64,000 nt of DNA. Source: an uncultured Candidatus Saccharibacteria bacterium (lineage in GTDB: Bacteria > Patescibacteriota > UBA1384 > CAYGGE01). This document shows, piece after piece, positions 10,574 through 52,482 of this stretch (positions within the stretch are counted from its first letter, which is position 1; each line of letters opens with the position of its first letter). The DNA lies in NCBI GenBank assembly GCA_964349485.1, contig CAYGGE010000001.1, positions 142,212-206,211 of the forward strand, in the 5' to 3' direction. The notes below the pieces were generated by a model. That model saw only the letters and a list, made by a program, of their open reading frames with translations, ran no database searches and was not told where the DNA came from. The translations under genes were made by a program, and so were the position numbers.

Positions 10574-10649
10574 CGGGGCGTAGCTCAGTGGTTAGAGCAA
10601 ACGGCTTATATCCGTTCGGTCGCCGGTTCGAATCCAGCCGCCCCGACCA
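10574..10649 (+). tRNA. tRNA-Ile with the unusual anticodon UAU; 76 nt, CCA encoded
   Basis: Manual cloverleaf: acceptor CGGGGCG/CGCCCCG, D-arm GCTC-AGTGGTTA-GAGC, anticodon stem AACGG/CCGTT, loop CTTATAT (U33, anticodon TAT at 10607-10609, A37), T-arm GCCGG-TTCGAAT-CCAGC, discriminator A, CCA. Confidence 0.75.
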
Positions 10650-12937: not shown

Positions 12938-15073
12938 ATGCACGTATTTCGTCAATCGCTCGCCAAATTACTGACCGTTGCTGTCGTGGTTCAAACGGTA
13001 ATCGGTGCTCTATTTCTTTACGCCCCACATGCCGCAGCTTCGGCTCCGGCTAGCTATGTCGTCATCAGTGAGGTCAAAACTAATGGTGCTGGTGACGATG
13101 AGTTTGTCGAGCTTTACAATCCGACCGGATCTGCTGTGACTATGTCAGGCTGGCGTCTCACCCGTATGAATAGCACAGGCACCGAGGCTAATCTGGTTGC
13201 TACTTTGAGTGGTACGATCCCAGCCTATGGTTATTTCCTTATTACCCACCCAACAAGCTACACTGGTGCAACGGCCGCCGATACAGTCTATTCCGCTCCC
13301 TCCAATGCGCTGACTAACAATTACACAGTTCTCTTGTATAGCGATGCTGGCGTGACCCGCGTCGACAAGGTAGGTTTCGGTTCCGCTGTCGATTTTGAGG
13401 GCGCGGCCTTTACGACATCACCAGGCCTCACGGAGAGTATCGAACGCTTGCCCGGAGCGAACTTCCCTTCACAGGGTAATGGTGTCGATACGAATAACAA
13501 TAGCCGCGACTTTGCCACCAGAAATACACCAGAACCTCAAAACAGTACGATGACTGAAAACCCCATGGCACCGGCCGCCGCTATTGGACTTGTGGCGTTG
13601 GATACTCCAAATGATAACGGGGGAAGCCTGACTCTGACATGGACCAAGTCAACTGACGATGGGGCTGGAAAAAATAATGTCACCGCCTACAATATTTGGC
13701 GTTCAGCCGCCGCCGCTGGTCCATTCACCCAGATTGATTCGGTAGCTAATGGCGTTACTACCTACATCGACATGACTGCAACGACCGGTAGTGCGTTCTA
13801 TTATCAAATTGAAGCGATCGACGGTGGCTATTCAACAGCCTCAGCGGTCAGCGCGGCAGCAACGTCCGTTGATAATCTAGGTCCAGTCATCAGTAATCTT
13901 CTGCCAACCGACAATTCGGCAGTAGCAAATCATCTGCCAACGGCAAGCGCGACCATCGCCGATTCCGGAACAGGCATAAACTTAGTCACAACAGTTCTCT
14001 ATCTCGACGACGTTCAGGTCGATGACTATACCGACAGCCTACTTGCATACACTACCCCTGTCGCCCTGACACAAGGTAACCATCGTGTCCGAGTCGTCGC
14101 CTTTGACATGGCTGGCAACATGACCCAGCAGAGCGCAAGCTTCATGGTTGATAACACGGCGCCGACCGCTGCCTTAACGATCGTTAAGTCTGCTCCAATA
14201 ACCACCACTCGAATCGTAAGTATCAGGATCGATGCCAGCGACAGCGGCTCAGGTATCGCTATGATGCGGGTGGGCTTTGACGGTAATGTCGATAACAAAG
14301 CTTGGGTAACCTTCGAGTCGGAATTAACCGGTGAGTTACCTGACTTCGATGGCGATCATGTCGTGGCAATCCAATTGCGCGACAAGGCTGGCAATATGTC
14401 CACCGTAGTTAAGGCTATGACGACGCTCGACCGAAGTTTAGTCAGTGCGCCAAGCGGGATCAATATCAATATGGTGACAGCCGAAGATGGTAAAGGGATT
14501 GCCACCATGACCTGGGACGTTGTTCCTAATGCAACCTATTACGTGATCCGCTACACTGACGGTACGGTCTTGTATGGGCCGTTCATGACCGGTGATCTGG
14601 CTTTTGTGGCCGGTGGACTAGAACAAGGTAAGACTTATACCTTTGAGATTGCTTCAGTTAATCGGGCTGGTACGGTTAGTAGTTTTACTTCTGCTATTGA
14701 CCGAACTGTGGTGATCGTTCCCGCTTCGGTATCTACATCTACCGAGTCACCAGCCCGGGTTGGCCGATTGGTAAACGGACAGCTCGTCTTTGGCGGTCCT
14801 GATGAGCTTGTTGCTCTTGAAGAATCGGCAGTGGTTGGACCACAACTGCGAGCTAAAAAAGCCCCAACGCCCCAAGCGACGATTAGTCCAACCCCAGCAC
14901 CAGAGATTAAGGGTGGCGAAACCAGCAATTCGCGAGACTGGACACGAGTTATCGTTGCCCTCTCTCTGCTGATAATCGCGGCTGGAGTCGCGACTGGTGG
15001 CTGGTATCTCTATCAATGGTGGTCAAGCCGTCCTGTTGATCCGAAAGAAAAAGGTAAGGGCGGTCGCTGGTAA
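12938..15073 (+). CDS. Cell-surface protein: signal peptide, lamin-tail domain (LTD), FN3 and Ig-like domains, Pro-rich linker, C-terminal TM anchor with basic tail
   Basis: YVVISEVKTNGAGDDEFVELYNPTGSAVTMSGWRL is an LTD signature. FN3-like WTKSTDDGAGKNNVTAYNIW...YYQIEAIDGGY follows. The C-terminus is WTRVIVALSLLIIAAGVATGGWYLYQWW + SRPVDPKEKGKGGRW. Confidence 0.75.
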   Translation: MHVFRQSLAKLLTVAVVVQTVIGALFLYAPHAAASAPASYVVISEVKTNGAGDDEFVELYNPTGSAVTMSGWRLTRMNSTGTEANLVATLSGTIPAYGYFLITHPTSYTGATAADTVYSAPSNALTNNYTVLLYSDAGVTRVDKVGFGSAVDFEGAAFTTSPGLTESIERLPGANFPSQGNGVDTNNNSRDFATRNTPEPQNSTMTENPMAPAAAIGLVALDTPNDNGGSLTLTWTKSTDDGAGKNNVTAYNIWRSAAAAGPFTQIDSVANGVTTYIDMTATTGSAFYYQIEAIDGGYSTASAVSAAATSVDNLGPVISNLLPTDNSAVANHLPTASATIADSGTGINLVTTVLYLDDVQVDDYTDSLLAYTTPVALTQGNHRVRVVAFDMAGNMTQQSASFMVDNTAPTAALTIVKSAPITTTRIVSIRIDASDSGSGIAMMRVGFDGNVDNKAWVTFESELTGELPDFDGDHVVAIQLRDKAGNMSTVVKAMTTLDRSLVSAPSGININMVTAEDGKGIATMTWDVVPNATYYVIRYTDGTVLYGPFMTGDLAFVAGGLEQGKTYTFEIASVNRAGTVSSFTSAIDRTVVIVPASVSTSTESPARVGRLVNGQLVFGGPDELVALEESAVVGPQLRAKKAPTPQATISPTPAPEIKGGETSNSRDWTRVIVALSLLIIAAGVATGGWYLYQWWSSRPVDPKEKGKGGRW

Positions 15074-15628: not shown

Positions 15629-16309
15629 TTAGGCTACTAACTCGTCTTTCGTGTGGGAAGTAGATGGCTCCTGGTGCGCCAGCTCACAGACAATAGCCTC
15701 AATTCGATTCGCCAGGTCTCTCGACTTTGCGAACTGATCAGGCTTGATCGGACTTCCGAACTCAAGACTGACGAACCCTGGCAACGGGAAGGCGCGACCT
15801 TTGGGCCATACCCAGTAAGTCCCCCGGATGCCAACCGGGATTACCGTTGTGCCGGTTCGTTTTGCCATGACTGCCGCTCCAGGCTTGAACGGCTTAACCT
15901 TGCCGTCAGGGCTTCTAGTCCCTTCGGGTAGTAGCACGAGCGCATCACCAGCTTTCAGATGCGCAATCATGTCGCTTTGCGCTTGACGATTGGTGGCATC
16001 AGTGCCGTCGGTTACGACTGGTACACAGCCGCAACCCTCAAGAACCTTGGCCATAAGTCGGTTTCGGCCCAGACTAGCCCGAGCAGCGAAACAGACGTGG
16101 CGGGAACGGATAAATCCGCCGAGTAACATCACATCGACGTAGGACATATGATTCGCGGCAATGATCACTGCACCCTCAGTCGGAACGTTTTCTAGTCCCC
16201 TAATTCGAATCCCTAAAGGACCGAAGCAGTAGAACCAGCAGAACAGCCTAGCGCCGAAACTCGACCACCAATAGGTGGTTGTAACTGCTGTCACAATCGT
16301 TTTTTCCAT
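15629..16309 (-). CDS. plsC: 1-acyl-sn-glycerol-3-phosphate acyltransferase family (PlsC/LPLAT; OlsA-like)
   Basis: IIAANHMSYVDVM (HX4D motif), LLPEGTRS motif, N-terminal TM. GAGGTG RBS upstream. Confidence 0.8.
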   Translation of the reverse strand: MEKTIVTAVTTTYWWSSFGARLFCWFYCFGPLGIRIRGLENVPTEGAVIIAANHMSYVDVMLLGGFIRSRHVCFAARASLGRNRLMAKVLEGCGCVPVVTDGTDATNRQAQSDMIAHLKAGDALVLLPEGTRSPDGKVKPFKPGAAVMAKRTGTTVIPVGIRGTYWVWPKGRAFPLPGFVSLEFGSPIKPDQFAKSRDLANRIEAIVCELAHQEPSTSHTKDELVA

Positions 16310-16428
16310 GCTGTCACCTCAGTCGAGCGGTCGACCAAAAATGGGCTCATTCGAACCGAGGCAAGTATACCCTACTTTATGTAAAAAGTCATCATCCCGA
16401 TCACTGTTCGGGCGATGTGACCGATTGA

Positions 16429-17454
16429 TTAGTGCGGGTTGGGACGGTCTTGGTCGCTGTCGGCTTTGGTGAGGTAGAAGTCTTGTAGCGGGACGTCGAG
16501 ATCGTAGGCGATGTTAATGACAAATTTGTTATATGACAGCGGGCTGAAGCGGATGGGGAACTGCTCAAAGTCTGTACTCTTCACATTGAAAAAACCAGAT
16601 TCAGTTAATGACTGATGATACTGCCTGTGGGAGAATAGGAAGTCAGCGGCATGGGCACCGTCGGTATGGGCAGATCTTAAAAATGATTGGAGTAAGTGGG
16701 TTTGAGTTCTTTCTGTCGCCACGAAATCGATAATTCGGGCGATGCGGAAGCCGTCAGCCTCCTCGACTCGATAAACGAGATAGCCTGCAAGCTGCTGGGC
16801 ATCGTACACTGCCAGTGTCTCGTAGCTCAAGTGGGGATGGTCCGTAAATCGTGAATTAAGATACTGTTTGCTACGTTCAATAGTGACTTTGTACCGCGAA
16901 CGAATGGTTCGCCAGAACGTGTCAAATTCTAACGAGAAATTATCGATTCTTTTAACAATCAACTGATCTTTGGTAGCTGATGCTGGCTCGCTAGTCGGTA
17001 CTTTGAACTTATACATGAGCGGATGAGGTTTGAGTATGGCGAAGAAGCGAGTCAGATCGCCTGCTTCACGCCAATGTGCACGCACATGGGAATAAAGGCG
17101 CAAGGCGGCATCGTTGTAGCTTAGGACGATGATTGGGTTAGGCGTATAGAACACTGAGCGGGCGAGTAATGGACCGATGCCAGCTAGCCGATATTCTGCG
17201 GCGACGAAGAGGTTCATCACTGCTCGTATGGTTTTGGTCTCAGCGTAAACTTTGTACAAAAAATCTTCGTAGCCGAAAAAACCAACGATCTTATTGTGGT
17301 GCTTGGCCAGCATCAGGACTCCGCTTCCAGTATATTGCCACTTCAGGAAAGCTTCATCGGCTAGAATATACTTCGGGTGAAAGGAGGTCCGAGCAAAACT
17401 GGCAAATGCCGGGTAATCAGCTGGCGTATATGGGCTAATTGTAATACCTTCCAT
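16429..17454 (-). CDS. GNAT-fold N-acyltransferase (FemAB/BioF2/OlsB-like), putative
   Basis: 341 aa in two GNAT-like halves, with composition like FemAB/OlsB-type acyl-ACP-dependent N-acyltransferases. TAATG-coupled to the upstream SDR gene. Confidence 0.4.
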   Translation of the reverse strand: MEGITISPYTPADYPAFASFARTSFHPKYILADEAFLKWQYTGSGVLMLAKHHNKIVGFFGYEDFLYKVYAETKTIRAVMNLFVAAEYRLAGIGPLLARSVFYTPNPIIVLSYNDAALRLYSHVRAHWREAGDLTRFFAILKPHPLMYKFKVPTSEPASATKDQLIVKRIDNFSLEFDTFWRTIRSRYKVTIERSKQYLNSRFTDHPHLSYETLAVYDAQQLAGYLVYRVEEADGFRIARIIDFVATERTQTHLLQSFLRSAHTDGAHAADFLFSHRQYHQSLTESGFFNVKSTDFEQFPIRFSPLSYNKFVINIAYDLDVPLQDFYLTKADSDQDRPNPH

Positions 17455-18122
17455 TAGATGACCACATTCTGGCCGGTTGCTTGGCCTTTAGCGAGATCGA
17501 TAACCGTCGTGGCGACATCTTCTGGCGTGGTAAGCCGACCTAACGGATTGAGGCGGACTTCAAGCTCAGCCATCTTTTCAGGTAGTGGAGCCGAAAACGC
17601 GTTTTGGACGTAGCGGGGCGAGACAGCGTTGACCTTGACGTTGAATCGTTCGAGCTCTTTCGATAGTGCCATGGTAAGGCCAAGCATGGCATATTTGCTT
17701 GTCACATAGTCCGCGAGATTGCTCGGCGGCGTGTCGGTTACGGCAGCGGAGAGGATATTGATAATTTGGCCATTCTGCTTGACTTTCATGCTTGGCAATA
17801 TGAGATTAGCTAGAACTACTCCGGTTTTCAGCTGGACATTGAGCTGATTGGCAAAATCGTCCCAAGTCTTGGTCTCAAAACTACCAGGTTTCAAAGGGGC
17901 ACTAATCGCATTGATTAGGATATCAACTGGACCATGGTCTGCGGTAACCTTGGCATGAAGGGTCTGAGCTTCAGTATCGTTTTGCAAGTCAGCCTGATAG
18001 TCGCCGATATCTAGGCCGTGGGCACAGACGATTGCTCCTTCTTTGGTGAAGGCCGTGCTAATTGCTGTACCGATGTTGCCGGTTCCGCCCAAGATCAAAA
18101 CTACCGCGTCTTTGAGTTTCAT
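17454..18122 (-). CDS. Short-chain dehydrogenase/reductase (FabG-like 3-oxoacyl-ACP reductase family)
   Basis: ILGGTGNIGTAI (TGxxxGxG) and YVTSKYAM (YxxxK). Confidence 0.8.
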   Translation of the reverse strand: MKLKDAVVLILGGTGNIGTAISTAFTKEGAIVCAHGLDIGDYQADLQNDTEAQTLHAKVTADHGPVDILINAISAPLKPGSFETKTWDDFANQLNVQLKTGVVLANLILPSMKVKQNGQIINILSAAVTDTPPSNLADYVTSKYAMLGLTMALSKELERFNVKVNAVSPRYVQNAFSAPLPEKMAELEVRLNPLGRLTTPEDVATTVIDLAKGQATGQNVVI

Positions 18123-18556
18123 TAGACACGCACCTTTACTTTAGCTAAACCGTCGACGATTAATTGCTGGTTATCGTCGACAACTGTAGTTTTTATGTCG
18201 ATCATGCGGGTGGCATCAGATTTGGCCATAACTTCACCTTGGATCTTGATTGATGAACCAAGCGGCAGTGGCCGGCGGAAGCGGAGATCCTGAGAAATAT
18301 AGAGACATTTTTCGCCTGGAATCAACATGCCGACTAAAGTTGAAAAGAGACTACCGAGCAACATGCCATGGACAATTCGACCGTTAAATTCTGTTGTATT
18401 GGCGAAGGCCTCGTCCATGTGCAATGGATTGCGGTCGCCAGTGAGCTCAGCGAATTGTTCGACTATCGACTCGGTAATCTCTCGTTCAAAGGAGAAAATA
18501 TCGCCGATAGTAATCGTTTCGTAAGTATGATGGTTAAGGGTAACTTGACTATTCAT
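18122..18556 (-). CDS. MaoC-like (R)-specific enoyl/hydroxyacyl dehydratase (hotdog fold)
   Basis: NPLHMDEAFANTTEFNGRIVHGMLLGS MaoC signature; 144 aa. Confidence 0.75.
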   Translation of the reverse strand: MNSQVTLNHHTYETITIGDIFSFEREITESIVEQFAELTGDRNPLHMDEAFANTTEFNGRIVHGMLLGSLFSTLVGMLIPGEKCLYISQDLRFRRPLPLGSSIKIQGEVMAKSDATRMIDIKTTVVDDNQQLIVDGLAKVKVRV

Positions 18557-18788
18557 GACCTAGCTCAACTCCATATTTCTTTAAGGCGGCGACAATATCG
18601 CCAACATTTTTAACTGCCATAATGTCGTCAACGGTAAAGCTGACGCCGAAACCTTTTTCTAATTCGGTAACTAGCAACAGTCCGTTAAACGAATCCCAGC
18701 TAGGGACATTTTGGGGACTGGTTTCGGGCGTGATCGCCGCTGGATCAATCGCTAATACGGTAGCCAGTATTTGACGGAGTTTATCCAT
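18549..18788 (-). CDS. acpP: Acyl carrier protein
   Basis: 79 aa, acidic, with the phosphopantetheine-site motif SWDSFNGLLLVTELE (DSx motif). Confidence 0.75.
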   Translation of the reverse strand: MDKLRQILATVLAIDPAAITPETSPQNVPSWDSFNGLLLVTELEKGFGVSFTVDDIMAVKNVGDIVAALKKYGVELGHE

Positions 18789-18790
18789 GC

Positions 18791-20443
18791 TTATCCTTCG
18801 ACAGTGACTTTAATGTATGGTGATTTAGTTGGCTCTTTACCTAGATCGAACTCATAGTTTTGGATCTCCCCTTCTTTATCAATAAGGGTGAAACCGGCGT
18901 CGGGAAGGGCGCTCACCGATGGTTTATTTTTAGTTGTGGGAATGAATTGCGCGGTCACTTTGTCTGCTTTCGCTTGTTTGGCCACGGCGAGAATGTGGTT
19001 GAAAAATGACTCTTCGATTCCCCGACCTAAAACACGGCAACTCATCAGGAAATTGGTTATCTCCCATACTTTACTACCTGGCTTTACCATGGCCACCCCA
19101 ACAATTCCGTAATCACCGAACACATCATGGGCTTCGAGGGTCCAGATTTTTTGGCCTTCTGCCAACAATCCTCTGACCTCTTCGACCGAATAGCGCCTTG
19201 TCATGAGATTAAACTGATTCGTCTTCTGGGTCAATTGGCTAATGCGAGCAATTGCTTCCGGCATGGCCGCTTTGATCGTAATCTCGAGTTTTAATTCTTT
19301 AATAAAGTGGTCAGTCGTTTTGAACTGCTGTTTAAATTCGGTCCGTTCCCGCTCCTTAACGTACATCTCACTCCGTTTCCGATCTTCATCGGTTAGGTGA
19401 AATTTAGTGAAGCCGGTATAATCGATAGCGTAATTTGGATGCAACACGGCGACTTCCGGTAGCGAGCTCCGCATCCGCTCGGCATTCCAATTGTCATCGT
19501 CAAACAAGACAAAGCTATCCAAGCCTAGGTTTAACTCATCGGCAAGTTCGGCAGTGTTGGCATCTTTATCTTGCCAATTGATTCGCCAAGCGGCGAAGTG
19601 GTGTTTTCGTAACAGCTGTTTCGGATGGTTTTCGATCGCTTCCATCGCATCGTCAAAATTGTTCTTACTATTAATCGTCAGGATGACACCAGTCTCGTAT
19701 AGATTTAGTATATGCTGTTGTAGTGGAATATTTGGTTTAATGCCGGTTAAGCCGTCTTCCCCAACCACACCCTCCCAAAGTGTATTGTCTAGGTCGAGGA
19801 GTAGACATTTCTTACTATTGCCCGCGGTAGCCACAGCGTAACCCAGAACTACCTCGGCCAGATCAGGAAAGGCTTGCGGGGCCAGGCGCAAATCACCGAG
19901 CTCTTTGTATTTGGTATACCAGAATTCCTTTATACCGATATTGTTAATAAAGGACACAAAATCTAAGACGTGAACTGACTCTCGGTTTTTGGTTAGGGCT
20001 TGCAGGCTGGCATTTAACTTGTCTGACTCAAAGAAATTAGCGATGACGATCTGGGCTGTTGTCCTGGCAGCTAATTGATCGATCAGTTCAATCATATGAT
20101 CCTCGCTCAGTATATCCGGTCGATCAAGTAGTAGGTAAATGATCTGGGGTATAAATTGATAGAGCTGGCTACTTGGGTTGGTGATCTCTTGGTTGAATTG
20201 GTTATAGGGCGCAGTGTAACATTCAATCGCTAAGTTATGGAAAATGCCTCGTCCTCTGACAGTCTCCGGTAAGCTAGTGATGGTGTAGCTGCTCAAAAAA
20301 GCCGCACGGAGTGTCCGGACATAGGTAGGGAGTTCGTTGATGTGCTGGTTGAGCTCAGTGCCACAAGCTAAATACTCACCGGCTGTGCTTTGCCGGTCAT
20401 TAACTAGTGCCCCAACTTTTTTCTGTAATTCATGAAATGTCAT
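18791..20443 (-). CDS. FkbH-like HAD-superfamily (subfamily IIIC) phosphatase domain protein with a C-terminal GNAT-like domain
   Basis: CLLLDLDNTLWEGVVGEDG (HAD motif I, DxDxT, in FkbH-like context). C-terminal FNLMTRRY...VLGRGIEE has GNAT-like signatures. 550 aa. Confidence 0.65.
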   Translation of the reverse strand: MTFHELQKKVGALVNDRQSTAGEYLACGTELNQHINELPTYVRTLRAAFLSSYTITSLPETVRGRGIFHNLAIECYTAPYNQFNQEITNPSSQLYQFIPQIIYLLLDRPDILSEDHMIELIDQLAARTTAQIVIANFFESDKLNASLQALTKNRESVHVLDFVSFINNIGIKEFWYTKYKELGDLRLAPQAFPDLAEVVLGYAVATAGNSKKCLLLDLDNTLWEGVVGEDGLTGIKPNIPLQQHILNLYETGVILTINSKNNFDDAMEAIENHPKQLLRKHHFAAWRINWQDKDANTAELADELNLGLDSFVLFDDDNWNAERMRSSLPEVAVLHPNYAIDYTGFTKFHLTDEDRKRSEMYVKERERTEFKQQFKTTDHFIKELKLEITIKAAMPEAIARISQLTQKTNQFNLMTRRYSVEEVRGLLAEGQKIWTLEAHDVFGDYGIVGVAMVKPGSKVWEITNFLMSCRVLGRGIEESFFNHILAVAKQAKADKVTAQFIPTTKNKPSVSALPDAGFTLIDKEGEIQNYEFDLGKEPTKSPYIKVTVEG

Positions 20444-20760
20444 GGGATGATCACTATTGCTACTGCTATCTGCTGATTGTGACTAATACTGAGCGTTGCA
20501 TTGTCGATATTGATTTGGGGAGCACCATCGGGCTTGTGACTGATATCGAAGTTGAGCATCTTATCTACTCCTACTTTGCCAGTAGCCTTCATGGCCGCTT
20601 CTTTGGCGGCGAAGTAGCCGGCTAGATGCTCGGCCACGCTACTGTCACGAAAGGCCTCTTGCCACTCGGATTTGGTAAAGACGTGTTTCCAATGCTCGTA
20701 ATCCTCTTGATTAATTGTCTGAAATTTCGTGACGGCGACCAGATCGATCCCAACCTGCAT
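20440..20760 (-). CDS. acpS: Holo-ACP synthase (4'-phosphopantetheinyl transferase, AcpS type)
   Basis: 106 aa beginning MQVGIDLVAV..., the size and motif of AcpS. ATGA-coupled. Confidence 0.7.
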   Translation of the reverse strand: MQVGIDLVAVTKFQTINQEDYEHWKHVFTKSEWQEAFRDSSVAEHLAGYFAAKEAAMKATGKVGVDKMLNFDISHKPDGAPQINIDNATLSISHNQQIAVAIVIIP

Positions 20761-21710
20761 TAGGCCCCCTTAATCGTGTTCAGATAATCACGTAGATCAT
20801 TGGTGTCATAGCGAGGGATAAGATATCGTTCATCGGTCGGTGTTATTGATCGTCGCTCGATTGTCACCGCTGCCTCAAAGCCAAGATCGGGTAGCAGATT
20901 TAGACAGATATTATTAGAACGACCATGCGGATATGACAAGACAGTCGGTCGCTTGCCGATAATTTCAGCCAGTAGTGTTGACGCCGTAGAGAGATCGTGA
21001 CGAAGGAAGTCTGCATCTTTGTGTTCAAGCGGTGAGTGTAGGTGAGTATGATTCTCGACAAAAAAACCGTCAGTGTCTAATTGTTTAATCTGATCATGAT
21101 TCATGAAAAGCTCTTTGTTAATTATCGCTTCGTCTAAATTAAGTTGATCGAATAACCGTCGTAAAAAATGATCACGGACTTCGTCGGGTAGTAGGCTCAT
21201 TGTCTCTTTGAAATTGGCTGGCAGGGTCTCGTCATTCATTCGGCGTGTGGTAATGCGGTGGTCTTTGGGGATCGTGAACTGGGTTAACTGATCTGGATAA
21301 TTTTTTGATAGAAAGTCATTGAAACGATCAATCAGTGCATCGGCTGATAAGCGTGACATGACTTCGTGTGCCTTGTGGGCGTCAGGGACGACACCGGAAA
21401 GAGTATTGGTAATAATAAAGAAAGTGGCGGTTGCACGGTACTTCTTGAGGATTGGCAAGGCGTGGATATATTGATCAAGTAAACCGTCGTCGAATGTTAT
21501 GGCACAAAGTTTCTCCGCTAGCTGATTACGGGCAGCGTCAATAGTTTCTGTTACCGAAACGAATCGGTAACTTTTGGCTATAAAAGCGATCTGTCGATCA
21601 AACTCGGCAACAGCGCATGGATGAATACCTGCCTTATCCGGACGCTTATCCTCGACGTAGTGGTAATTAATGCAGATCTGCTTAGCGGTTGGATCAAAGT
21701 TCATGGGCAT
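20760..21710 (-). CDS. Polysaccharide deacetylase (NodB homology domain, CE4)
   Basis: ITFDDGLLDQYIHALPILKKYRATATFFI (TFDDG motif) ... SYPHGRS. First gene of the operon. A TTGACA-18-TAGTAT promoter and AAAGGA RBS lie upstream on the minus strand. Confidence 0.75.
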   Translation of the reverse strand: MPMNFDPTAKQICINYHYVEDKRPDKAGIHPCAVAEFDRQIAFIAKSYRFVSVTETIDAARNQLAEKLCAITFDDGLLDQYIHALPILKKYRATATFFIITNTLSGVVPDAHKAHEVMSRLSADALIDRFNDFLSKNYPDQLTQFTIPKDHRITTRRMNDETLPANFKETMSLLPDEVRDHFLRRLFDQLNLDEAIINKELFMNHDQIKQLDTDGFFVENHTHLHSPLEHKDADFLRHDLSTASTLLAEIIGKRPTVLSYPHGRSNNICLNLLPDLGFEAAVTIERRSITPTDERYLIPRYDTNDLRDYLNTIKGA

Positions 21711-21924
21711 AGTCCTTTAGTCTTGTGTAACCACATACTACTGGAGCATGCTTGAACCTGTCAAGGATATTTTTACAAGGCATCTATAGTTTTTGAACAA
21801 AGTTTACATATCCAGCCTCCAGGTTGGAAGCGGCCGTTGTGATAGTATGCAGAGTTGTTCTGGTCAAATTTAGGATACCTTAAAAAGACATTATGCCACA
21901 AGACGCAGTACTACATTCAAAACA

Positions 21925-22299
21925 TTAATTGATCGGTTTAATCGTAAAGTCTTTTCTGGTGGTCTGGCCCTTCTTGTCGATCACAATATCTTGGGAAGAA
22001 CCGTCAACGGTCTGATACCACTTATCATCCTTTTGAAAACGGACAGGTAGCCCACCTGTGGCCATGGTCACAATTTCGTACTTGCCGTTGGCAAAGGTTT
22101 TAACGCCTACACCACCGATACTGACTAAGACATTGGCCATCGGCTTACCAGTATCGCTCAGAATCGTACCACTGACTACGGTAAAATCTTTCTGGACTGT
22201 GATGACATCGGCTTTCACATAGCGCTGGTAATAGATGTACGAAGCAGCAGCGATAAGTACCACGAAAGCTAGTGGAATGACGATTGAAGTTCGTTTCAT
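21925..22299 (-). CDS. Small signal-anchored protein with a carboxypeptidase-regulatory-like (CarbopepD_reg) beta-sandwich domain
   Basis: TM MKRTSIVIPLAFVVLIAAASYIYY followed by TILSDTGKPMANVLVSIGGVGVKTFANGKYEI. GGAGG RBS. Lies directly downstream of the 964-aa protein. Confidence 0.4.
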   Translation of the reverse strand: MKRTSIVIPLAFVVLIAAASYIYYQRYVKADVITVQKDFTVVSGTILSDTGKPMANVLVSIGGVGVKTFANGKYEIVTMATGGLPVRFQKDDKWYQTVDGSSQDIVIDKKGQTTRKDFTIKPIN

Positions 22300-22301
22300 G
22301 T

Positions 22302-25196
22302 CTACCTCCCCGCCGGTATTAAGACGGCATCGATAACAATTTTGTTACGACCGGTGATATATACTTGTTGGGTAGAGTTGGCGTAGCCTATCTTCGAGAT
22401 AGTGACAGTATAAGGCCCTGGTTTAAGGTTCTTGAAAGTTGCTTGCGTTCCACTAGCTGACGTTGTGGCCCCGTCTTCGTCGGCAGATGTATCTGCAGGT
22501 CCAGCTTCGACGGCAGTGTTTGCGGTCAACGCTTGCTGGTCGGTGGCAGCAGTCGACAGAATTCGTACAGAAGCCCCAGCAATCTCCTTGCCTAGGGCCG
22601 CTGGGTTAGTTCCCCCAGGCTCAAAGGCCCGGACTGTTGCGGTATATTTGCGACTTGCTGGATCGAATAGATCAGCGTTGCTGGCTAAATTAAGATTAAT
22701 TTCGGCATTATCACCGTAGCCACGAGTGAAAACCGTCTCGACTACATGCTTTTTATTGTAGGCGAAGTTGGTGATGCCGCTATAGGTTGCGTTTCCCCGG
22801 ACTGGCTTAAAGTAGCGGACAAGGTCCTGGGTTGTGGGAAACGCTTCACCTCGCCAAGTATTGTAAAACGAACTGTTAGCAGGGCCCGCAAACTCAATTG
22901 GTAGGTAGCCGATGCCGTTAGCTGGGAAAATAGACTGGCGGGTATTGTTGGGTGAAGCGACTGCTAGTAGCATGCCATCTTGGTTTAAGCCAGCGAAATG
23001 ATAGCGACCTTGGCTGTCTGTAATGTCCACAAACTCCTTAAAACCACTACCTTGGCTTGATCGGGAGAAATTTAAGGCACGCACCGTCACACCGGCTACA
23101 GGTTGATTATTTCGAGTGATTACACCAGTGAGTGTGTTGGCGGGAGCGGTGATCGGTACCGGGTTCACGTCGATACTGAGGTAATTGCCAGAGGAGTAGG
23201 TGTATGTACTAAGCGGTGGGGATGTGATAGTTTTGCTACCACTATGCCAGATGAAATCTCCCGTCGACTTGGCGTTTATAATTATTGGCTTGCTCGTATC
23301 ATTGAGTATAGTAGCGAAAAAAACACCGGCAGAGAATCTATCGGTCTGACTAATCGAATAGGCAACTTCATTAGGGTTGGTAGTGCCGCTACCGAAACTG
23401 ATCATCCGACCATAGCCACCACGTAGGGGTACTGGGGGAAAATCGGTGTCACTCGCATTGTAGATAATCGCTCCGGCAAGTGGTACACGACTTTGGTTAT
23501 TTGAGCCTGCATTGTAAACACGACCATAAAACTCCTGGGTCTCATAATTACGAGTTAACTCTTGCCCAGGTTGAGTAAACTTGATGTACGCAAACTGAGA
23601 TGGCAATGAGCCAGATTGTAACCAGCTTTCTTTGACACCATTATCGAACATTTCATTTTCAATAAAGTATATACGATATGATTCGTTCAAGACTGTTGGT
23701 ATATCGGGAATCGAATATTGGCCTGTCACTGAGTTCGCATAGCCAGTTGCCAGAACAAGTGAATCTTTCTTCAAGATAACGCGAGTATTTTTAGGTCCTG
23801 TGCCACTTATCTTTGATTTGGCGCCTACGTACATCGAAATCGTATCTGCCTGATTGTCGCCGGCCTTCAAACTAGCAAACGAAGTGTAGGTTGACATGTG
23901 AGTTGGTGATCGAAAAATCAGGGTATAGGGCTGACCTTCGGCTGCACCGGTAATCGCGTATGAACCAGTTGCATCGGTTGTTGCCACAAGCTCAAGGGTT
24001 GATTGATAGTGATGATTTAACTGGCGAAAAACCTGGACTCCAGGAAGTGCCGCTTTCGTCAGTCCATCAATCGTTTCACCTTTTATCACCGCGGTTTTAG
24101 GGGCCGTTGAGGGATCGATGTACCGTGTTGTAATATTTAATGAGTTCAGTTTTGTTGGATCGGGAGTGAAATCTGACAAGGCTTGGACTGGTTTGGTGCC
24201 AGGGGGACTATAGTAACCAGGTGCAGGATACCTTACAGACACCGCAGTTGGTTTATTTTTCTCATGACCGATGAAGATATCGTATTTGCCATCAGTGTTG
24301 GTTGTTAATAGATCAACAAGTCCACCTGCATCTAAACTATAGAGCCTTGATGTAACATTGAACTTTGATGTTACTGTTTGAATTGCAGCGCTCGACAGCG
24401 TTCCGCTTTCGTCGGGCAGTAAGACTTTGCCCGATACTCGGCTAATTGCTGAAGCAACTTTCAATACACCAGTGTTAGCCGCAACTGAACTAGTATCAAA
24501 ATTAGCGATTACGAAATCTTTACCAAAGCTCGATCCATCACCAGAACGCCAACGGAAGAAAGCAGTATATTCACCATCCGGCAGATCGGCGACCGAATAG
24601 GTCATTTTATTTTGATTCGGTCTGCTGGCTTGAGCCGAAAAACCAACAAGGCCGTCTGAGCTTTCAATCAGGATGTGTGGCTGCCACTGTTCCATGGCAG
24701 TTACCAATAGGCTGTCACTGTACTCAATCGTTCCTTCTAGATTAATTGGTACACCGGGGTTTAGGCCAATCTCGCCGATATCCTTTAATTGGTCTCTGAC
24801 TGCAAATCCAGTCGGCACAATACTAGCTCGATAATTTGCCCCACCAACTTTGAGATTGGTTCCTGTTGTAAAAGGTATAGAACTACCGGTCTGGAGGATA
24901 GTCACACTAAAGCTAAAATTGCCCTGCGCATCGGCGGTTACGGTCTTAGCGTTGCCATTTGTGTTAGCACCTTCTGGCTGCAAGGTCCCCAATGGACCAG
25001 TTGCTACGTAGCTATACGACTTGCCGTAGGTGACAACTGCGCCGGGGATCGGCTGTCTAGTCGCTGAATTGACCACCCGTCCCTTGAAGCTAAAAACGTT
25101 TCGGCTGGTTGTCTGTTGGGCTACAGTCGATTCAACACCGAGCGAACTTAAACTGAGTACAGTGGCCAGTATGAGCAAGGAAAATTTCTGAATCAT
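22302..25196 (-). CDS. Large secreted cell-surface protein with repeated carboxypeptidase-regulatory-like / Cna-B-like beta-sandwich domains
   Basis: Signal peptide MIQKFSLLILATVLSLSSLG. Repeats like GRVVNSATRQPIPGAVVTYGK and ITGAAEGQPYTLIF. GGAGGGG RBS and a TTGACA-17-TACGAT promoter on the minus strand upstream. Confidence 0.6.
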   Translation of the reverse strand: MIQKFSLLILATVLSLSSLGVESTVAQQTTSRNVFSFKGRVVNSATRQPIPGAVVTYGKSYSYVATGPLGTLQPEGANTNGNAKTVTADAQGNFSFSVTILQTGSSIPFTTGTNLKVGGANYRASIVPTGFAVRDQLKDIGEIGLNPGVPINLEGTIEYSDSLLVTAMEQWQPHILIESSDGLVGFSAQASRPNQNKMTYSVADLPDGEYTAFFRWRSGDGSSFGKDFVIANFDTSSVAANTGVLKVASAISRVSGKVLLPDESGTLSSAAIQTVTSKFNVTSRLYSLDAGGLVDLLTTNTDGKYDIFIGHEKNKPTAVSVRYPAPGYYSPPGTKPVQALSDFTPDPTKLNSLNITTRYIDPSTAPKTAVIKGETIDGLTKAALPGVQVFRQLNHHYQSTLELVATTDATGSYAITGAAEGQPYTLIFRSPTHMSTYTSFASLKAGDNQADTISMYVGAKSKISGTGPKNTRVILKKDSLVLATGYANSVTGQYSIPDIPTVLNESYRIYFIENEMFDNGVKESWLQSGSLPSQFAYIKFTQPGQELTRNYETQEFYGRVYNAGSNNQSRVPLAGAIIYNASDTDFPPVPLRGGYGRMISFGSGTTNPNEVAYSISQTDRFSAGVFFATILNDTSKPIIINAKSTGDFIWHSGSKTITSPPLSTYTYSSGNYLSIDVNPVPITAPANTLTGVITRNNQPVAGVTVRALNFSRSSQGSGFKEFVDITDSQGRYHFAGLNQDGMLLAVASPNNTRQSIFPANGIGYLPIEFAGPANSSFYNTWRGEAFPTTQDLVRYFKPVRGNATYSGITNFAYNKKHVVETVFTRGYGDNAEINLNLASNADLFDPASRKYTATVRAFEPGGTNPAALGKEIAGASVRILSTAATDQQALTANTAVEAGPADTSADEDGATTSASGTQATFKNLKPGPYTVTISKIGYANSTQQVYITGRNKIVIDAVLIPAGR

Positions 25197-36691: not shown

Positions 36692-38873
36692 CATCGCAAC
36701 TATTACAAAGAGCTATAGACAACTCACTCTGCGATACCAGTGGTTAGCTTATTATCTTCTCTTCAGTCTACTGGCCGCAGGTCTCTTCGTTCTCAGCTTG
36801 AGGCTGGCTACCAATGGTTTTCCGTACCTTCTTCACTTGGTAGGCCTGGTAGTATTTTTTATTCCTGGGCTGACCATTACACTTGCGGTTGAGCAGTTAG
36901 TTGGTGCCCCGCAGTCCTTATTTCGACTATTTCTCTGGGGCTTTATTTGCTCTCTGACCTTCAATCCGACAGCCATTTTTATCCTCGGGCAACAGTTGGA
37001 TCGCCCGGCCATGACAAACGTGCTTTTTCTGTTTTCGATCTGGTGGCTCGCTGTTTTAGGCATCCTCACAATATTCTATATGATCAAAGCGAGTCCAACC
37101 GGTCTCACTTTTCCACGTTTCCCGACCTATTCTCGAAGCGTCTTATGGGTAATGCTGGTCAGTTTGGGTGTGTTAGCGATTCACTTTATCCTATATCCTT
37201 ATATTCCTGAGGTAGATGGTTATGCCAACATCTTATCGGTTGAACGACTTAATGATTTTCCCAAGGAACTGAACTCTGAACCAAGATTTCTCTACCTATT
37301 GCTTACCCAGATCCTCTCCGTACTTTCGGCGATTTCACCATACTGGCTGTATAAATTGGTTCTCCCGCTATTCAATCTAGTTCCCCTACTCGTCTTACTT
37401 CGGATAAGCCAACCAATTAAAATAGCTTGGCTACGTTGGCTATTAGTCCTATCCTTGTTTTCGGCTCCTGTTGTAGTAGAGGAGATGGTGATTACTCGTC
37501 CGCAGTCAATCTTCTTTCTGACTCTTCTACCAATTTGCTATCTTTTAGGAAAATACTCACTCGAGCGTCGTCCGGCAAGTAATATTTTCTGGCTGGTCAC
37601 TCTAGCCGCGGTGGTTGTCTTAGGTAGTGGTATCCACGGCATGTTCATCCTAGTCGCCAGCCTTATTCCATGTGCCATATTGGTCTATTACTGGCAAAGC
37701 ATTAAACGATCTCCACTCGATGCAGTCATCGTTGGCCTAGCGGTACTCATCGCTATCTATCCTTGGTTAGCTAAGCTTGATTTTCTTGGCTTTATCATGG
37801 GGACCGGTCAATTAGTCATCAATATCATCCGGGAATCACATTTTGAGTTTTGGTTTATCGACAACTATACAAATGTCGATGGTAATTCGATCGGTTGGCC
37901 TGGCTGGTCAAGTTTATACTACTACGGCTATAATACCGGACTGTTTTTACCTGTCGGTATAGGTGTAGCGCTTTGGCTAGCAGTTAGAGTGCGGAATATT
38001 TCGCCTAGACCTTGGGTTCTTTCTTGGCCAATCATTGGTGCCTTGCTAATCTTTTTTGCTGTAGCTGAGATATTCCCCCGTTTTGGATTTGCCTATTTAC
38101 CTGATCGTGCTTGGCTATTCATTAGTGCTTTGACGCCGATAGTTTTAATGTTCGTCTACCAGTTTATAGGCAGTGAACAGTTGACACGTCAGGTTCGTAT
38201 CCTACTGATCGGCAGTCTGGTGCTGTCGATCGTGGGTGGGTGGTTGACTACCTACTTAAAACAGGGTTGGGTTAACCGCAATGAATATAAGACACTGCCG
38301 TTTATCCAAAAGGAATTGCCTGAAAATTCGTTGATTCTTACTCAGTCAGGTAACAGAGTCTTGATTAAGTATTTTGCTCGGCGCTACTTCCTGGCTCCAC
38401 CAGGAGAAGTATTCTACGACACGGATATATCAAGTCTTGACACCTTTGTTCGTGATACGTTGTCGGAAGATCCGACACAGAAAATTGAGCAATCACCGGC
38501 CGATATCGAATCCAAGCGTCGGGATAGTCGACAGTCGATCAACGAGCTCCTCTCTAGTTTTTATGTCACTACGGATGCAAACTCAAGCCTTGAAGTGATT
38601 AAGCAATTAGAGGATCGACTTAAAGAATATAGCAAACTAGTAATCAAGGTTGATCAAAACGACGCTAACCAATCAGTAAAGATTGAGAAGGAGCGAGATT
38701 ATAAGACCCCAATCTATCTGCTTTACTCATTTAATCGCTTTAATGGGCTATATGGTATGCGCGATTGGTGGTTAAAGTCGAACTTTCAGGGTGCTAACCT
38801 CGATAAGTTTACCGAGAATTACCCCCTTATCTATGATCAAGATGGGGTGATGATCTGGGAGATTCGAAAGTAA
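36681..38873 (+). CDS. Large GT-C-fold-like membrane protein (YfhO/ArnT/PMT-like architecture), putative polyprenyl-P-sugar-dependent extracytoplasmic glycosyltransferase
   Basis: Start taken at ATG 36681 (MSLSIATIT), overlapping the preceding stop. About 13 or more TM helices plus a roughly 250-aa C-terminal soluble domain. No WWDYG oligosaccharyltransferase motif. Confidence 0.4.
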   Translation: MSLSIATITKSYRQLTLRYQWLAYYLLFSLLAAGLFVLSLRLATNGFPYLLHLVGLVVFFIPGLTITLAVEQLVGAPQSLFRLFLWGFICSLTFNPTAIFILGQQLDRPAMTNVLFLFSIWWLAVLGILTIFYMIKASPTGLTFPRFPTYSRSVLWVMLVSLGVLAIHFILYPYIPEVDGYANILSVERLNDFPKELNSEPRFLYLLLTQILSVLSAISPYWLYKLVLPLFNLVPLLVLLRISQPIKIAWLRWLLVLSLFSAPVVVEEMVITRPQSIFFLTLLPICYLLGKYSLERRPASNIFWLVTLAAVVVLGSGIHGMFILVASLIPCAILVYYWQSIKRSPLDAVIVGLAVLIAIYPWLAKLDFLGFIMGTGQLVINIIRESHFEFWFIDNYTNVDGNSIGWPGWSSLYYYGYNTGLFLPVGIGVALWLAVRVRNISPRPWVLSWPIIGALLIFFAVAEIFPRFGFAYLPDRAWLFISALTPIVLMFVYQFIGSEQLTRQVRILLIGSLVLSIVGGWLTTYLKQGWVNRNEYKTLPFIQKELPENSLILTQSGNRVLIKYFARRYFLAPPGEVFYDTDISSLDTFVRDTLSEDPTQKIEQSPADIESKRRDSRQSINELLSSFYVTTDANSSLEVIKQLEDRLKEYSKLVIKVDQNDANQSVKIEKERDYKTPIYLLYSFNRFNGLYGMRDWWLKSNFQGANLDKFTENYPLIYDQDGVMIWEIRK

Positions 38874-46045: not shown

Positions 46046-47129
46046 ACCAAGAATCCTGATTGTTTCGTATCTCGCCCATCCTTTGTTCGCCGAATCCTCA
46101 GGTGTGGTTCATGGTGGGTCTGAACTGGCAATGTACAATTTAGCCAAATATACTAATAAAGACGAGTTCGAGGTACATTGTTTGGTTGGTGACTTCAGCC
46201 AGCCCGCTAATCAACTTATCGATCAGATCCATGTACATAAAGGACCGAAGGTCGAAAGAGTCGGGATCTTGAAGGGCATGCTAAATGTCCTGAATCTTTT
46301 TCGTAAAGTTAAACAGATTAATCCCGATGTTATGGTTTCCTCTTCAGCTGGTTGGTTAACTATTGAGCTTATTTTGATCAAGATACTTCTTGGGAAAAGG
46401 TATATTTTCCGCAGTTCTCACCGACGCAATATCGATGGTAGTCTGGACTCAAAGGGCTATGGCTGGCTCTATCGGCGACTCATGAACCGAATCGATTGCT
46501 TCGTGATCCAAAATGCTGAGGACGAGTTGGTTCTTCGGACAACCTACAGTTACGTTGGCAAGGTCGTCTGCATTAAGAATCTTCAGGATATACCACCAAA
46601 AATCGATGACAGTTACCGACAACGTGAGTATATACTTTGGGTCGGCCGATCAGAGGCCATAAAACAGCCCGAGCTCTTTCTCGAATTAGCCAGAAAACTA
46701 CCCAAACATCAATTCAAAATGCTAATGCCCAAGACGAATGAAGCAATATACGCGAAGATAACCGAAGAAGCGAAGCTTATCCCTAATCTGACGATCCTGG
46801 ATTGGATCGACCACGAGGCGATTGCGCAACTTTACCAATCTGCTCGATTTTTGGTTAGCACCTCTGCTGGTGAGGGGTTGCCAAACGTTGTCCTTGAAGC
46901 AATGAAGTATGGTTGTCCTATTCTCTCTTATCAACTGGATTATGATGGTATGATAGAAAACAGCTGTGGTTTAGTCGCAGGCGGTGACATGATAAAACTC
47001 GTCGAATTTATTGACTCTTGTCAGGAACAGACTTGGCAGAAGTTGTCCGATGCCTGCTTTGACTACGCAACCGCTAATTTTTCTGCACCAAAAAATATTA
47101 AAGCCTATGAAGCAATCCTTAGGGGTTAA
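46038..47129 (+). CDS. Glycosyltransferase family 1 (GT4)
   Basis: GEGLPNVVLEAMKYGCPILS motif. Confidence 0.8.
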   Translation: MHKPRILIVSYLAHPLFAESSGVVHGGSELAMYNLAKYTNKDEFEVHCLVGDFSQPANQLIDQIHVHKGPKVERVGILKGMLNVLNLFRKVKQINPDVMVSSSAGWLTIELILIKILLGKRYIFRSSHRRNIDGSLDSKGYGWLYRRLMNRIDCFVIQNAEDELVLRTTYSYVGKVVCIKNLQDIPPKIDDSYRQREYILWVGRSEAIKQPELFLELARKLPKHQFKMLMPKTNEAIYAKITEEAKLIPNLTILDWIDHEAIAQLYQSARFLVSTSAGEGLPNVVLEAMKYGCPILSYQLDYDGMIENSCGLVAGGDMIKLVEFIDSCQEQTWQKLSDACFDYATANFSAPKNIKAYEAILRG

Positions 47130-47130
47130 C

Positions 47131-52480: not shown

Positions 52481-52482
52481 TT

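Follow-up and report, generated by a model that had tools for sequence, protein, structure and literature searches.

Seven tightly packed minus-strand genes in a 64,000-nucleotide stretch of DNA from an uncultured Candidatus Saccharibacteria bacterium (the window) run from a CE4 N-deacetylase to a tandem GNAT acyltransferase, and we read them as a self-contained N-acyl swap cassette. The cassette would replace the N-acetyl group of a nonulosonic acid (a sialic-acid-like, nine-carbon sugar), or of its 2-acetamido-hexose precursor, with a three-carbon (C3) hydroxyacyl group; judged from sequence and gene context, the probability of this reading is about 0.6. More tentatively, at somewhat short of even odds, the cassette may be the missing genetic basis of N-lactyl and N-glyceroyl sialic-acid-like sugars. 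It would act through a large and unrecognized family of tandem GNATs that depend on acyl-acyl carrier protein (acyl-ACP) and have a tail like that of N-myristoyltransferase (NMT); it would be modular, spread over at least eight bacterial phyla and the Nanoarchaeota, and in this organism would make a 5-N-lactyl surface analogue. The seven genes, and an eighth that follows them, are

20760–21710, minus strand: CE4 N-deacetylase, 316 amino acids, gene 1 of the operon
20440–20760, minus strand: AcpS-type 4'-phosphopantetheinyl transferase, 106 amino acids
18791–20443, minus strand: FkbH-family loader, 550 amino acids
18549–18788, minus strand: ACP, 79 amino acids
18122–18556, minus strand: MaoC dehydratase, 144 amino acids
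17454–18122, minus strand: FabG-like short-chain dehydrogenase/reductase (SDR), 222 amino acids
16429–17454, minus strand: tandem GNAT ('GNAT2'), 341 amino acids
15629–16309, minus strand: PlsC-family acyltransferase, 226 amino acids

The first-pass annotation had described eight co-directional, translationally coupled open reading frames at these coordinates, and its inventory is correct according to both Pfam and NCBIfam: seven of the products score above the family cut-offs and the tandem GNAT is marginal. Each of the eight proteins retains its catalytic motifs and, as had been stated, no ketosynthase is present among the window genes. Nothing was seen of the features by which the first-pass annotation would, in its own terms, have been refuted. 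The first seven genes overlap or nearly abut; from CE4 to GNAT the junctions are, in order, a 1-nucleotide (nt) overlap, a 4-nt overlap, a 2-nt gap, an 8-nt overlap and two 1-nt overlaps. The GNAT and PlsC genes are separated by 119 nt, a gap with a weak promoter-like site and a hairpin. Upstream of the CE4 gene is a gap of 214 nt, which holds the top-scoring promoter-like site of the region:

21735–21764, minus strand: candidate promoter TTGACA-18-TAGTAT, 10 of 12 matches

The promoter and terminator scan returned promoter-like sites in this region at chance level, and the operon boundaries are thus set by spacing only.

To place the cassette in other genomes, 442 relatives of the GNAT were taken from a scan at one genome per species, and 79 loci, each up to ∼17 kb, were read with hidden Markov models (HMMs) built from the window proteins, counting genes that run in the same direction as the GNAT gene and lie no more than 6 kb from it. 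A CE4 gene is present at 66 of the 79 loci and lies immediately downstream of the GNAT gene at 49; ACP is found at 53, FkbH at 45, SDR at 42 and MaoC at 40. The 79 loci are spread over Patescibacteria, Acidobacteriota, Verrucomicrobiota, Planctomycetota, Chloroflexota, Alpha- and Gammaproteobacteria, Desulfovibrio, Bacillales, Gemmatimonadota and two genomes of Nanoarchaeota, and it is metagenome-assembled Patescibacteria genomes that supply the great bulk of the homologues of both the FkbH-like protein and the GNAT. The typical order in Patescibacteria is that of the window (CE4-AcpS-FkbH-ACP-MaoC-SDR-GNAT), with a [MaoC+SDR fusion]-FkbH-ACP-GNAT-CE4 order in Acidobacteriota and FkbH-ACP-GNAT-MaoC-CE4 in Verrucomicrobiota. 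The two nearest loci, L010 and L012, carry all seven genes, collinear and with 42–72% identity. The conserved unit is CE4 through GNAT. Its arrangement is not due to chance: the seven genes are co-conserved in the same order in the nearest relatives and the core recurs across phyla, so the synteny that had been looked for in other genomes is there.

The remaining genes of the 79 loci were clustered without prior labels and the cluster representatives were then annotated. This gave a NeuC-type UDP-N-acetylglucosamine (UDP-GlcNAc) 2-epimerase at 39 loci, a CMP-sugar synthetase (CTP_transf_3) at 35–36, NeuB at 35, a PseB/PglF-type 4,6-dehydratase at 26, Wzt at 26 and Wzm at 15, a Glyphos_transf/BFO_1060-like glycosyltransferase (cluster c8) at 18–22, an adenylating enzyme at 18, and a D-2-hydroxyacid dehydrogenase and an asparagine-synthase-like amidotransferase at 15–16 each. 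DegT aminotransferases, CBS-nucleotidyltransferases (PtmE-like) and methyltransferases are further recurrent neighbours. For FkbH+GNAT loci flanked by 6 kb or more on each side, at least one of NeuB, NeuC and CMP-synthetase is present at 24 of 26 and at least two at 17 of 26. Locus L062 reads aminotransferase, dehydratase, NeuB, MaoC+SDR, FkbH, ACP, GNAT, CE4, NeuC, CMP-synthetase, 2-hydroxyacid dehydrogenase, amidotransferase, Wzt; at L010 and L012 the cassette lies between a candidate transferase and NeuC. The window holds homologues of these partners, which share 32–61% identity with those flanking the cassette elsewhere:

48845–50023, minus strand: NeuC-type hydrolysing UDP-GlcNAc 2-epimerase (TIGR03568 NeuC_NnaA, 324 bits; cut-off 235.9)
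50020–51108, minus strand: NeuB-family nonulosonic acid synthase (PF03102, 226 bits; below the NeuB and PseI equivalog cut-offs)
48093–48812, minus strand: CMP-nonulosonate synthetase (PF02348, 83.5 bits; PseF-like, 192 bits against a cut-off of 205.7)
47011–48096, plus strand: D-2-hydroxyacid/phosphoglycerate-dehydrogenase-like enzyme (PF02826, 184.8 bits; PGDH-like, 223 bits, below cut-off)
51098–52480, minus strand: Glyphos_transf/BFO_1060-like glycosyltransferase, candidate nonulosonate transferase (PF04464, 49 bits; NF046086, 46.9 bits against a cut-off of 200)
53838–55232, minus strand: BFO_1060-like paralogue
38873–40762, plus strand: asparagine-synthase-like glutamine amidotransferase, within a glycosyltransferase cluster

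The NeuC, NeuB and CMP-synthetase genes lie ∼26 kb from the window cassette and are contiguous with the cassette in relatives. The window yielded no DegT aminotransferase, and the NeuB and cytidylyltransferase score below the equivalog cut-offs; for these reasons the sugar is not assigned to the Neu, Leg or Pse class. The homologues of the amidotransferase usually stand just before Wzt, and the window enzyme may amidate the sugar carboxylate. The 2-hydroxyacid dehydrogenase is 46% identical to its homologue at L012; further homologues are found at L010, L020, L030, L052, L053, L057, L062, L069 and L074, with both FkbH- and adenylation-type loaders. The two BFO_1060-like genes belong to a run of three tandem minus-strand genes of ∼455–465 codons by NeuB (51098–55232), the middle one of which (52483–53847) has no Pfam match. 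BFO_1060 itself is among the predicted transferases for nonulosonic-acid derivatives in Tannerella forsythia (PMC5420450).

The last gene of the conserved unit encodes a 341-residue protein with marginal Pfam GNAT matches in both halves and no match to any NCBIfam model. It has two lobes in one chain, with the pantetheine-binding motif R/Q-x-x-G-x-G/A in one of them, in keeping with the two-lobed GNAT first proposed. The likeness to OlsB or FemX proposed with it did not hold: neither an OlsB/Acetyltransf_5 (PF13444) nor a FemAB signal was found in the Pfam and NCBIfam searches, and a fold search instead gave Eis and N-myristoyltransferase, tandem GNATs with 7–15% sequence identity to the cassette protein. 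A direct sequence search of the PDB returned only a marginal match to a single GNAT (PDB entry 6ao7, E = 0.01). A C-terminal D-x-D-Q-D-R-P-N-P motif is invariant in an alignment of 23 sequences and is found, as K-x-D-x-D-Q-D-R-P-N, in the C-terminal stretch of the window protein (residues 330–341); the chain stops 1–3 residues past D-R-P in 84 of 107 motif-bearing members. In the AF2 model the last ten residues have low confidence. N-Myristoyltransferase has a catalytic C-terminus, and by analogy the invariant tail may be a catalytic tail of the same kind. The family is large and unnamed: a profile run against 1.84 billion cluster representatives gave 10,534 relatives at E ≤ 1e-3, nearly all of them full-length. 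Some members are fused to FkbH and ACP (P0211, 1068 amino acids; L016; L024), to ACP (P0197, P0203, P0206, L020 and L025) or to an AMP-binding adenylation domain (P0225), and from these fusions we argue that the acyl donor is a carrier-protein thioester. The cassette GNAT is therefore predicted to be an acyl-ACP-dependent N-acyltransferase, which would set it apart from its acyl-CoA-using structural neighbours, the Eis-type tandem GNATs and NMT.

By sequence criteria the acyl-forming half of the cassette is a genuine FkbH-family system. The 550-residue protein matches TIGR01686 (FkbH) with 277.8 bits (cut-off 146.65) over profile positions 3–321 of 323, as well as TIGR01681 (HAD-IIIC; 53.8 bits against 35.75) and PF21211 (FkbH_N; 35.2 against 27), and consists of an FkbH_N region, a HAD-IIIC phosphatase domain and a C-terminal transferase domain that bears the cysteine; a PDB relative is entry 3slr. 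Asp217/Asp219/Thr221, Ser259, Lys293, Asp315-Asp316 and Ser468-Cys469-Arg470 are each kept in at least 143 of 148 FkbH homologues, and a wider set that includes KTNQFN (407–412) and Glu477 in at least 138. The phosphatase residues expected of an FkbH-like protein are thus in place, as is a conserved C-terminal cysteine, Cys469, which probably corresponds to the catalytic cysteine of OzmB. The ACP (PF00550 PP-binding, 38.9 bits) has the serine needed for phosphopantetheinylation, Ser33, in a W31-D32-S33-F context of which W31-D32-S33 is kept in 39 cassette ACPs, again as anticipated. The AcpS (PF01648, 51.9 bits; TIGR00556, 60.9 bits against 45.35) is co-located at 10 of the 79 loci, mostly in Patescibacteria and Nanoarchaeota. 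Patescibacteria as a group commonly lack fatty-acid synthesis, so a dedicated AcpS would plausibly be needed. We predict that the FkbH-like protein converts 1,3-bisphosphoglycerate to glyceryl-S-ACP. This chemistry is documented for FkbH, with glyceryl-ACP as the product and an FkbK-type oxidation of the 3-hydroxyl as the known following step (PMC7489565). A rule table for polyketide synthases assumes that an FkbH loading module gives D-lactate-ACP, with 1,3-bisphosphoglycerate plus ACP as the starting materials (PMC7901079), and activation of D-3-phosphoglycerate has been reported for the vioprolide FkbH domain (PMC10099666).

Two enzymes are available to alter the glyceryl unit. The MaoC protein (PF01575 MaoC_dehydratas, 70.7 bits) has at residues 35–52 a complete hydratase-2 motif, FAELTGDRNPLHMDEAFA, as defined by the pattern [YF]-x(1,2)-[LVIG]-[STGC]-G-D-x-N-P-[LIV]-H-x5-[AS], in which the Asp and His are catalytic; these are Asp41 and His46, both conserved. 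Glyceryl-ACP is a plausible substrate for a hydratase-2, as it is a 3-hydroxyacyl thioester, and by analogy its dehydration by MaoC to enol-pyruvoyl/pyruvoyl-ACP is predicted. The SDR (adh_short_C2, 96.4 bits) has GGTGNIG at 12–18, N-I-L-S at 122–125 and Tyr139-x3-Lys143. It scores below every FabG equivalog cut-off and so is not FabG itself; it is predicted, again by analogy, to be a ketoreductase that yields lactyl-ACP. Reduction of 2-ketoacyl carrier-protein thioesters by ketoreductase domains of the SDR type has precedent in the cereulide and valinomycin synthetases. The MaoC and SDR genes are fused at ∼20 loci of the Acidobacteriota type, which implies that dehydratase and reductase act together in consecutive steps.

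The CE4 protein matches PF01522 (Polysacc_deac_1) with 78 bits in two stretches, with an insertion of ∼100 residues between the catalytic motifs. These motifs (TFDD 72–75, His221-T-H-L-His225, Arg300 and Asp302) are kept among 59 cassette-linked CE4s. The protein is below every equivalog cut-off (PgaB, IcaB, PdaA and NodB), and its top similarities in NCBIfam and the PDB are to the PgaB/IcaB/PdaA types. The N-terminus shows no hydrophobic leader, as judged by eye and without a signal-peptide predictor, which suggests that the acyl swap is cytoplasmic.

The pathway that we propose would run as follows. AcpS would make holo-ACP. The FkbH-family enzyme would dephosphorylate 1,3-bisphosphoglycerate on its HAD domain, hold the glyceryl group on Cys469 and pass it to Ser33 of the ACP. 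MaoC would remove the 3-hydroxyl of glyceryl-ACP to give enol-pyruvoyl/pyruvoyl-ACP, and the SDR would reduce the 2-oxo group to give lactyl-ACP, by analogy with the FkbH loading modules of trans-acyltransferase (trans-AT) polyketide synthases (PKSs). The cytoplasmic CE4 would remove the N-acetyl group inherited from UDP-GlcNAc, at what becomes N5 of the nine-carbon sugar, and through the tandem GNAT the amine so exposed would receive the C3 acyl group carried by the ACP. The sugar would be built and activated by NeuC, NeuB and the CMP-synthetase, and then placed on a surface glycoconjugate by BFO_1060-like transferases; no fixed order is set for the CE4, GNAT and NeuC/NeuB/CMP-synthetase/transferase steps. 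That the swap exchanges a pre-existing N-acetyl group follows, in this scheme, from the tight pairing of CE4 and GNAT, and a 5-N-lactyl sugar is predicted because the C2 acetyl of UDP-GlcNAc, which ends at N5, is the only acetyl that is inherited and not installed. Gene content, motifs, synteny, gene fusions and the linkage to nonulosonic-acid genes are observed directly; from these we infer the chemistry of each step, the identity of the acyl group as lactyl and its place on N5. The earlier idea of a C3 hydroxyacyl group on a deacetylated amino sugar is supported by the presence of CE4 near the GNAT at most of the loci; its placement on the 'adjacent glycan' we narrow to a nonulosonic acid or a hexosamine precursor.

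The cassette varies between genomes in ways that bear on its product. About seven FkbH loci have neither MaoC nor SDR and are predicted to give an N-glyceroyl product; loci with MaoC only would give a pyruvoyl product, or the reduction would be done elsewhere. Replacement of the SDR by the 2-hydroxyacid dehydrogenase at the MaoC-only loci was considered and rejected, as the co-occurrence pattern gives no clean substitution. Three of the loci without MaoC and SDR (L079, L029 and L015) have O-methyltransferases embedded in the cassette, with the order FkbH-GNAT-MT-MT(TylF-like)-CE4 at L079 (MT, methyltransferase). The flagellin of Campylobacter jejuni carries 2,3-di-O-methylglyceroyl pseudaminic acid, which these methyltransferases echo. 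Cultured organisms with FkbH but neither MaoC nor SDR include Psychrobacillus sp. NPDC096623 (L078) and Tepidicaulis sp. LMO-SS28 (L079), for which glyceroyl groups are predicted, O-methylated in the latter. At other loci (L018, L019, L044, L045, L051, L060, L066, L072 and L075) the GNAT-CE4 pair is served by an adenylating enzyme and an ACP in place of FkbH, and in some cases an SDR or a B12-radical-SAM enzyme is present as well; the implication is that the same swap logic installs N-acyl groups of other kinds. The adenylation-type variant extends to cultured Bacillales, with Paenibacillus luteus (L045), Cohnella panacarvi (L058) and Lysinibacillus zambalensis (L066) as carriers. At L005/L006 (8001–11856) FkbH-ACP-MaoC-SDR is followed by a 175-residue hexapeptide-repeat acyltransferase (left-handed β-helix, LbH) that replaces the tandem GNAT, and nonulosonic-acid genes are absent within 8 kb. 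At L007–L009 (5532–11512) FkbH-ACP-MaoC-SDR-AcpS is preceded by a DUF1574 protein and an MBOAT protein that is probably DltB/AlgI-like. By analogy with D-alanylation, this variant suggests export of a C3 acyl group for extracytoplasmic O-acylation. The FkbH-ACP-MaoC-SDR module looks like a portable C3 acyl-ACP generator for glycan decoration. The cassette is also carried by two Nanoarchaeota (DPANN-type) loci, L017 (5123–9020) and L018; the former has CE4-AcpS-FkbH-ACP-MaoC-GNAT adjoining the genes for CMP-synthetase, NeuB and NeuC. Such loci suggest that the cassette has passed between ultra-small bacteria and archaea.

Several points weigh against a lactyl swap on a nonulosonic acid. The chemistry of the cassette proteins is itself read from their sequences. 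The substrate of the CE4 may be UDP-GlcNAc, N-acetylmannosamine (ManNAc), the nine-carbon sugar (free or CMP-activated) or the finished glycan. FabG-like SDRs normally reduce 3-oxo and not 2-oxo groups, and CE4 enzymes are best known on GlcNAc-type polymers. The existence of FkbH loci with MaoC and no SDR (∼10) or with neither (∼7) makes the acyl product non-uniform and the lactyl assignment model-dependent. In the window, ∼26 kb that include tRNA genes and unrelated genes separate the cassette from the nonulosonic-acid genes, so that the link here is carried by the homologous loci; of the 44 GNAT loci flanked by 6 kb or more on each side, eight have no nonulosonic-acid gene within 8 kb. The N-glyceroyl group of T. 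forsythia sits at N7 and would need no deacetylase (PMC5378307). Some of these points would equally suit the same deacetylate-and-reacylate logic on another amino sugar, such as a GlcNAc/ManNAc-type residue in a surface glycan, whether lipid-linked or polymeric, in a teichoic-acid-like polymer or in a peptidoglycan precursor. The window cassette adjoins large secreted CarboxypepD_reg proteins and not NeuB/NeuC, its CE4 is most similar to polymer-type deacetylases, FkbH-ACP-MaoC-SDR occurs with other transferases at loci without nonulosonic-acid genes (LbH at L005, MBOAT and DUF1574 at L007), and N-lactyl and N-glyceroyl groups are also found on Rha4N, Fuc3N and Qui4N (PMC9912281). We nevertheless regard another acceptor as unlikely, given the nonulosonic-acid genes at 24 of the 26 well-flanked FkbH+GNAT loci, the position of the L010 and L012 cassettes between a candidate transferase and NeuC, and the lack of a leader visible by eye on the CE4, which argues against an exported polymer. 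A nonulosonic acid that receives a group other than lactyl (glyceroyl, pyruvoyl or an oxidized group such as 2-hydroxy-3-oxopropanoyl, with the SDR acting as a 3-hydroxyacyl dehydrogenase) is a serious competitor, if still rather improbable. The pairing of hydratase-2 and SDR matches multifunctional enzyme type 2, in which the SDR oxidizes 3-hydroxyacyl thioesters; MaoC-only cassettes and those lacking both enzymes exist, among decorations of nonulosonic acids N-glyceroyl is the better documented, and the known fate of the FkbH product, glyceryl-ACP, is 3-hydroxyl oxidation of the FkbK type (PMC7489565). However, a dehydration with a subsequent oxidation at one and the same carbon makes no chemical sense, but with a subsequent 2-oxo reduction it does, and the MaoC-SDR fusions indicate consecutive steps; D-lactate-ACP is listed as the product of an FkbH loading module in polyketide synthases (PMC7901079) and a natural N-lactyl pseudaminic acid exists (PMC9912281).

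Two further readings would take the cassette away from glycans. FkbH, ACP, dehydratase and ketoreductase are hallmarks of glycerate-using polyketide and non-ribosomal peptide pathways, and the genes could form a polyketide/tetronate-like or glycerate-containing natural-product cluster that merely lies near glycan genes. This is very improbable: no ketosynthase, FabH-like tetronate synthase, condensation domain or thioesterase is present in the window or at the 79 related loci, and the recurrent neighbours at those loci are glycan genes. The other is the ornithine- or glycine-lipid pathway of the first-pass annotation, in which an OlsB-like GNAT would N-acylate an amino acid from a hydroxyacyl-ACP and an OlsA-like PlsC would add the second chain. 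The PlsC gene does lie 119 nt downstream on the same strand, and its product (PF01553, 86.9 bits; His54-x4-Asp59 and PEGTR motifs) weakly matches models of lyso-ornithine-lipid O-acyltransferases (46 and 38.7 bits against cut-offs of 300). Yet a search with HMMs of the window proteins and BLASTP found a PlsC homologue within ∼8 kb at none of the 79 GNAT-anchored loci, the GNAT has an Eis/NMT-like fold in place of any OlsB/Acetyltransf_5, FemAB or NCBIfam match, neither a ketosynthase nor a long-chain acyl source is present, and the conserved partners, CE4 and the nonulosonic-acid genes, have no role in aminolipid synthesis. With PlsC non-syntenic and no OlsB/FemAB signal in the GNAT, the OlsB/OlsA pathway is rejected as scarcely credible. 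The PlsC protein is probably a neighbour outside the conserved system, most simply a lysophospholipid acyltransferase.

Read as an N-acyl swap on a nonulosonic acid, the cassette works, as far as its sequences tell, like two known systems without being a member of either, since models and folds do not match. In Nod-factor synthesis the NodB deacetylase is followed by the NodA N-acyltransferase with the acyl carrier protein NodF; there too a cytoplasmic CE4 de-N-acetylates a GlcNAc-derived sugar and a dedicated carrier-bound acyl group is then put on the freed amine. The cassette CE4, however, is no NodB orthologue (TIGR04243, 26 bits against a cut-off of 240), and its transferase is a tandem GNAT and not of the NodA family. 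Its acyl group would be a C3 unit drawn from glycolysis through FkbH, in contrast to the C16–C20 chains made with the NodE ketosynthase, and its inferred acceptor lies in a nine-carbon sugar pathway in place of a chito-oligosaccharide. In lipid A synthesis, the deacetylase LpxC is followed by the acyl-ACP-dependent N-acyltransferase LpxD, so that the N-acetyl group of a UDP-GlcNAc-derived sugar is likewise swapped for an ACP-borne hydroxyacyl group; the variant at L005, with its left-handed β-helix acyltransferase, resembles LpxD in this respect also. The cassette differs in having a CE4 deacetylase, a GNAT fold and a C3 chain (C12–C16 in lipid A), and in serving another pathway. The acyl-forming part resembles FkbH, OzmB and Tmn16 and the D-lactyl loading modules of trans-AT PKSs, which combine an FkbH enzyme, a cognate ACP, a dehydratase and a reductase; the bryostatin BryA module, for instance, is DH-KR-FkbH-ACP (DH, dehydratase; KR, ketoreductase). 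Here the parts are discrete small proteins, with a MaoC hotdog protein and a FabG-like SDR as opposed to PKS DH and KR domains, and the product would go to an N-acyltransferase for glycan tailoring and not to ketosynthase extension.

N-Glyceroyl and N-lactyl nonulosonic acids, the products expected from such a cassette, occur in nature. T. forsythia makes an N-glyceroyl pseudaminic acid (Pse5Am7Gra), the genetic basis of which has been called 'a major challenge' (PMC5378307). Lactyl groups in amide linkage are reported on pseudaminic acid ('P. marincola'), Rha4N and Fuc3N, and a glyceric acid amide on Qui4N (PMC9912281). The flagellar glycosylation locus of C. jejuni contains the FkbH-domain gene cj1302 (PMC7099621), and ACP-type and deacetylase genes have been noted, uncharacterized, in Aeromonas pseudaminic acid islands. 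No gene-to-structure link for the N-glyceroyl or N-lactyl nonulosonic acids was found in the open-access full-text literature, nor was a description of the cassette or of the GNAT family, although a recent paper in a subscription journal could be missed there. The enzyme superfamilies and the swap logic are already known. What was not found described is the combination of a C3 unit supplied by FkbH, a separate dehydratase and reductase, a new family of acyl-ACP-dependent tandem GNATs and a CE4 in nonulosonic-acid loci of many phyla.

On many bacteria and archaea the outermost surface sugars are nonulosonic acids, whose N-acyl groups set recognition by the immune system, phages and lectins. The cassette offers a concrete, expressible pathway with which the question of how N-glyceroyl and N-lactyl groups are installed becomes testable, and a D-x-D-Q-D-R-P C-terminal motif beside CE4 and ACP genes can serve as a genome signature for predicting such decorations. 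It would define a large, uncharacterized family of acyl-ACP-dependent GNATs, and would bring FkbH chemistry, so far associated with polyketide and non-ribosomal peptide pathways, into glycan tailoring. For the ultra-small Patescibacteria and Nanoarchaeota it indicates an investment in elaborate sialic-acid-like surface chemistry. The cassette could also be a source of enzymes for the synthesis of N-acyl-modified sialic acids.

In the window the cassette is flanked by large predicted surface proteins. On one side (21925–25196, minus strand) are proteins of 964 and 124 amino acids with CarboxypepD_reg/SdrD_B repeats, and on the other (12938–15073, plus strand) is a 711-residue protein with Lamin-tail, Big_13 and fn3 domains; these could be glycoprotein targets. 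Elsewhere in the window, a tRNA-Ile with a genomically encoded TAT anticodon is found at 10574–10649 on the plus strand (ARAGORN; Rfam tRNA, 65.8 bits); in most bacteria AUA is read by a modified CAU anticodon. A SAM-I/IV riboswitch aptamer at 63446–63584 on the minus strand scores barely above the gathering score (41.7 against 41.1 bits) and lies directly upstream of an S-adenosylmethionine synthetase gene (62271–63413).

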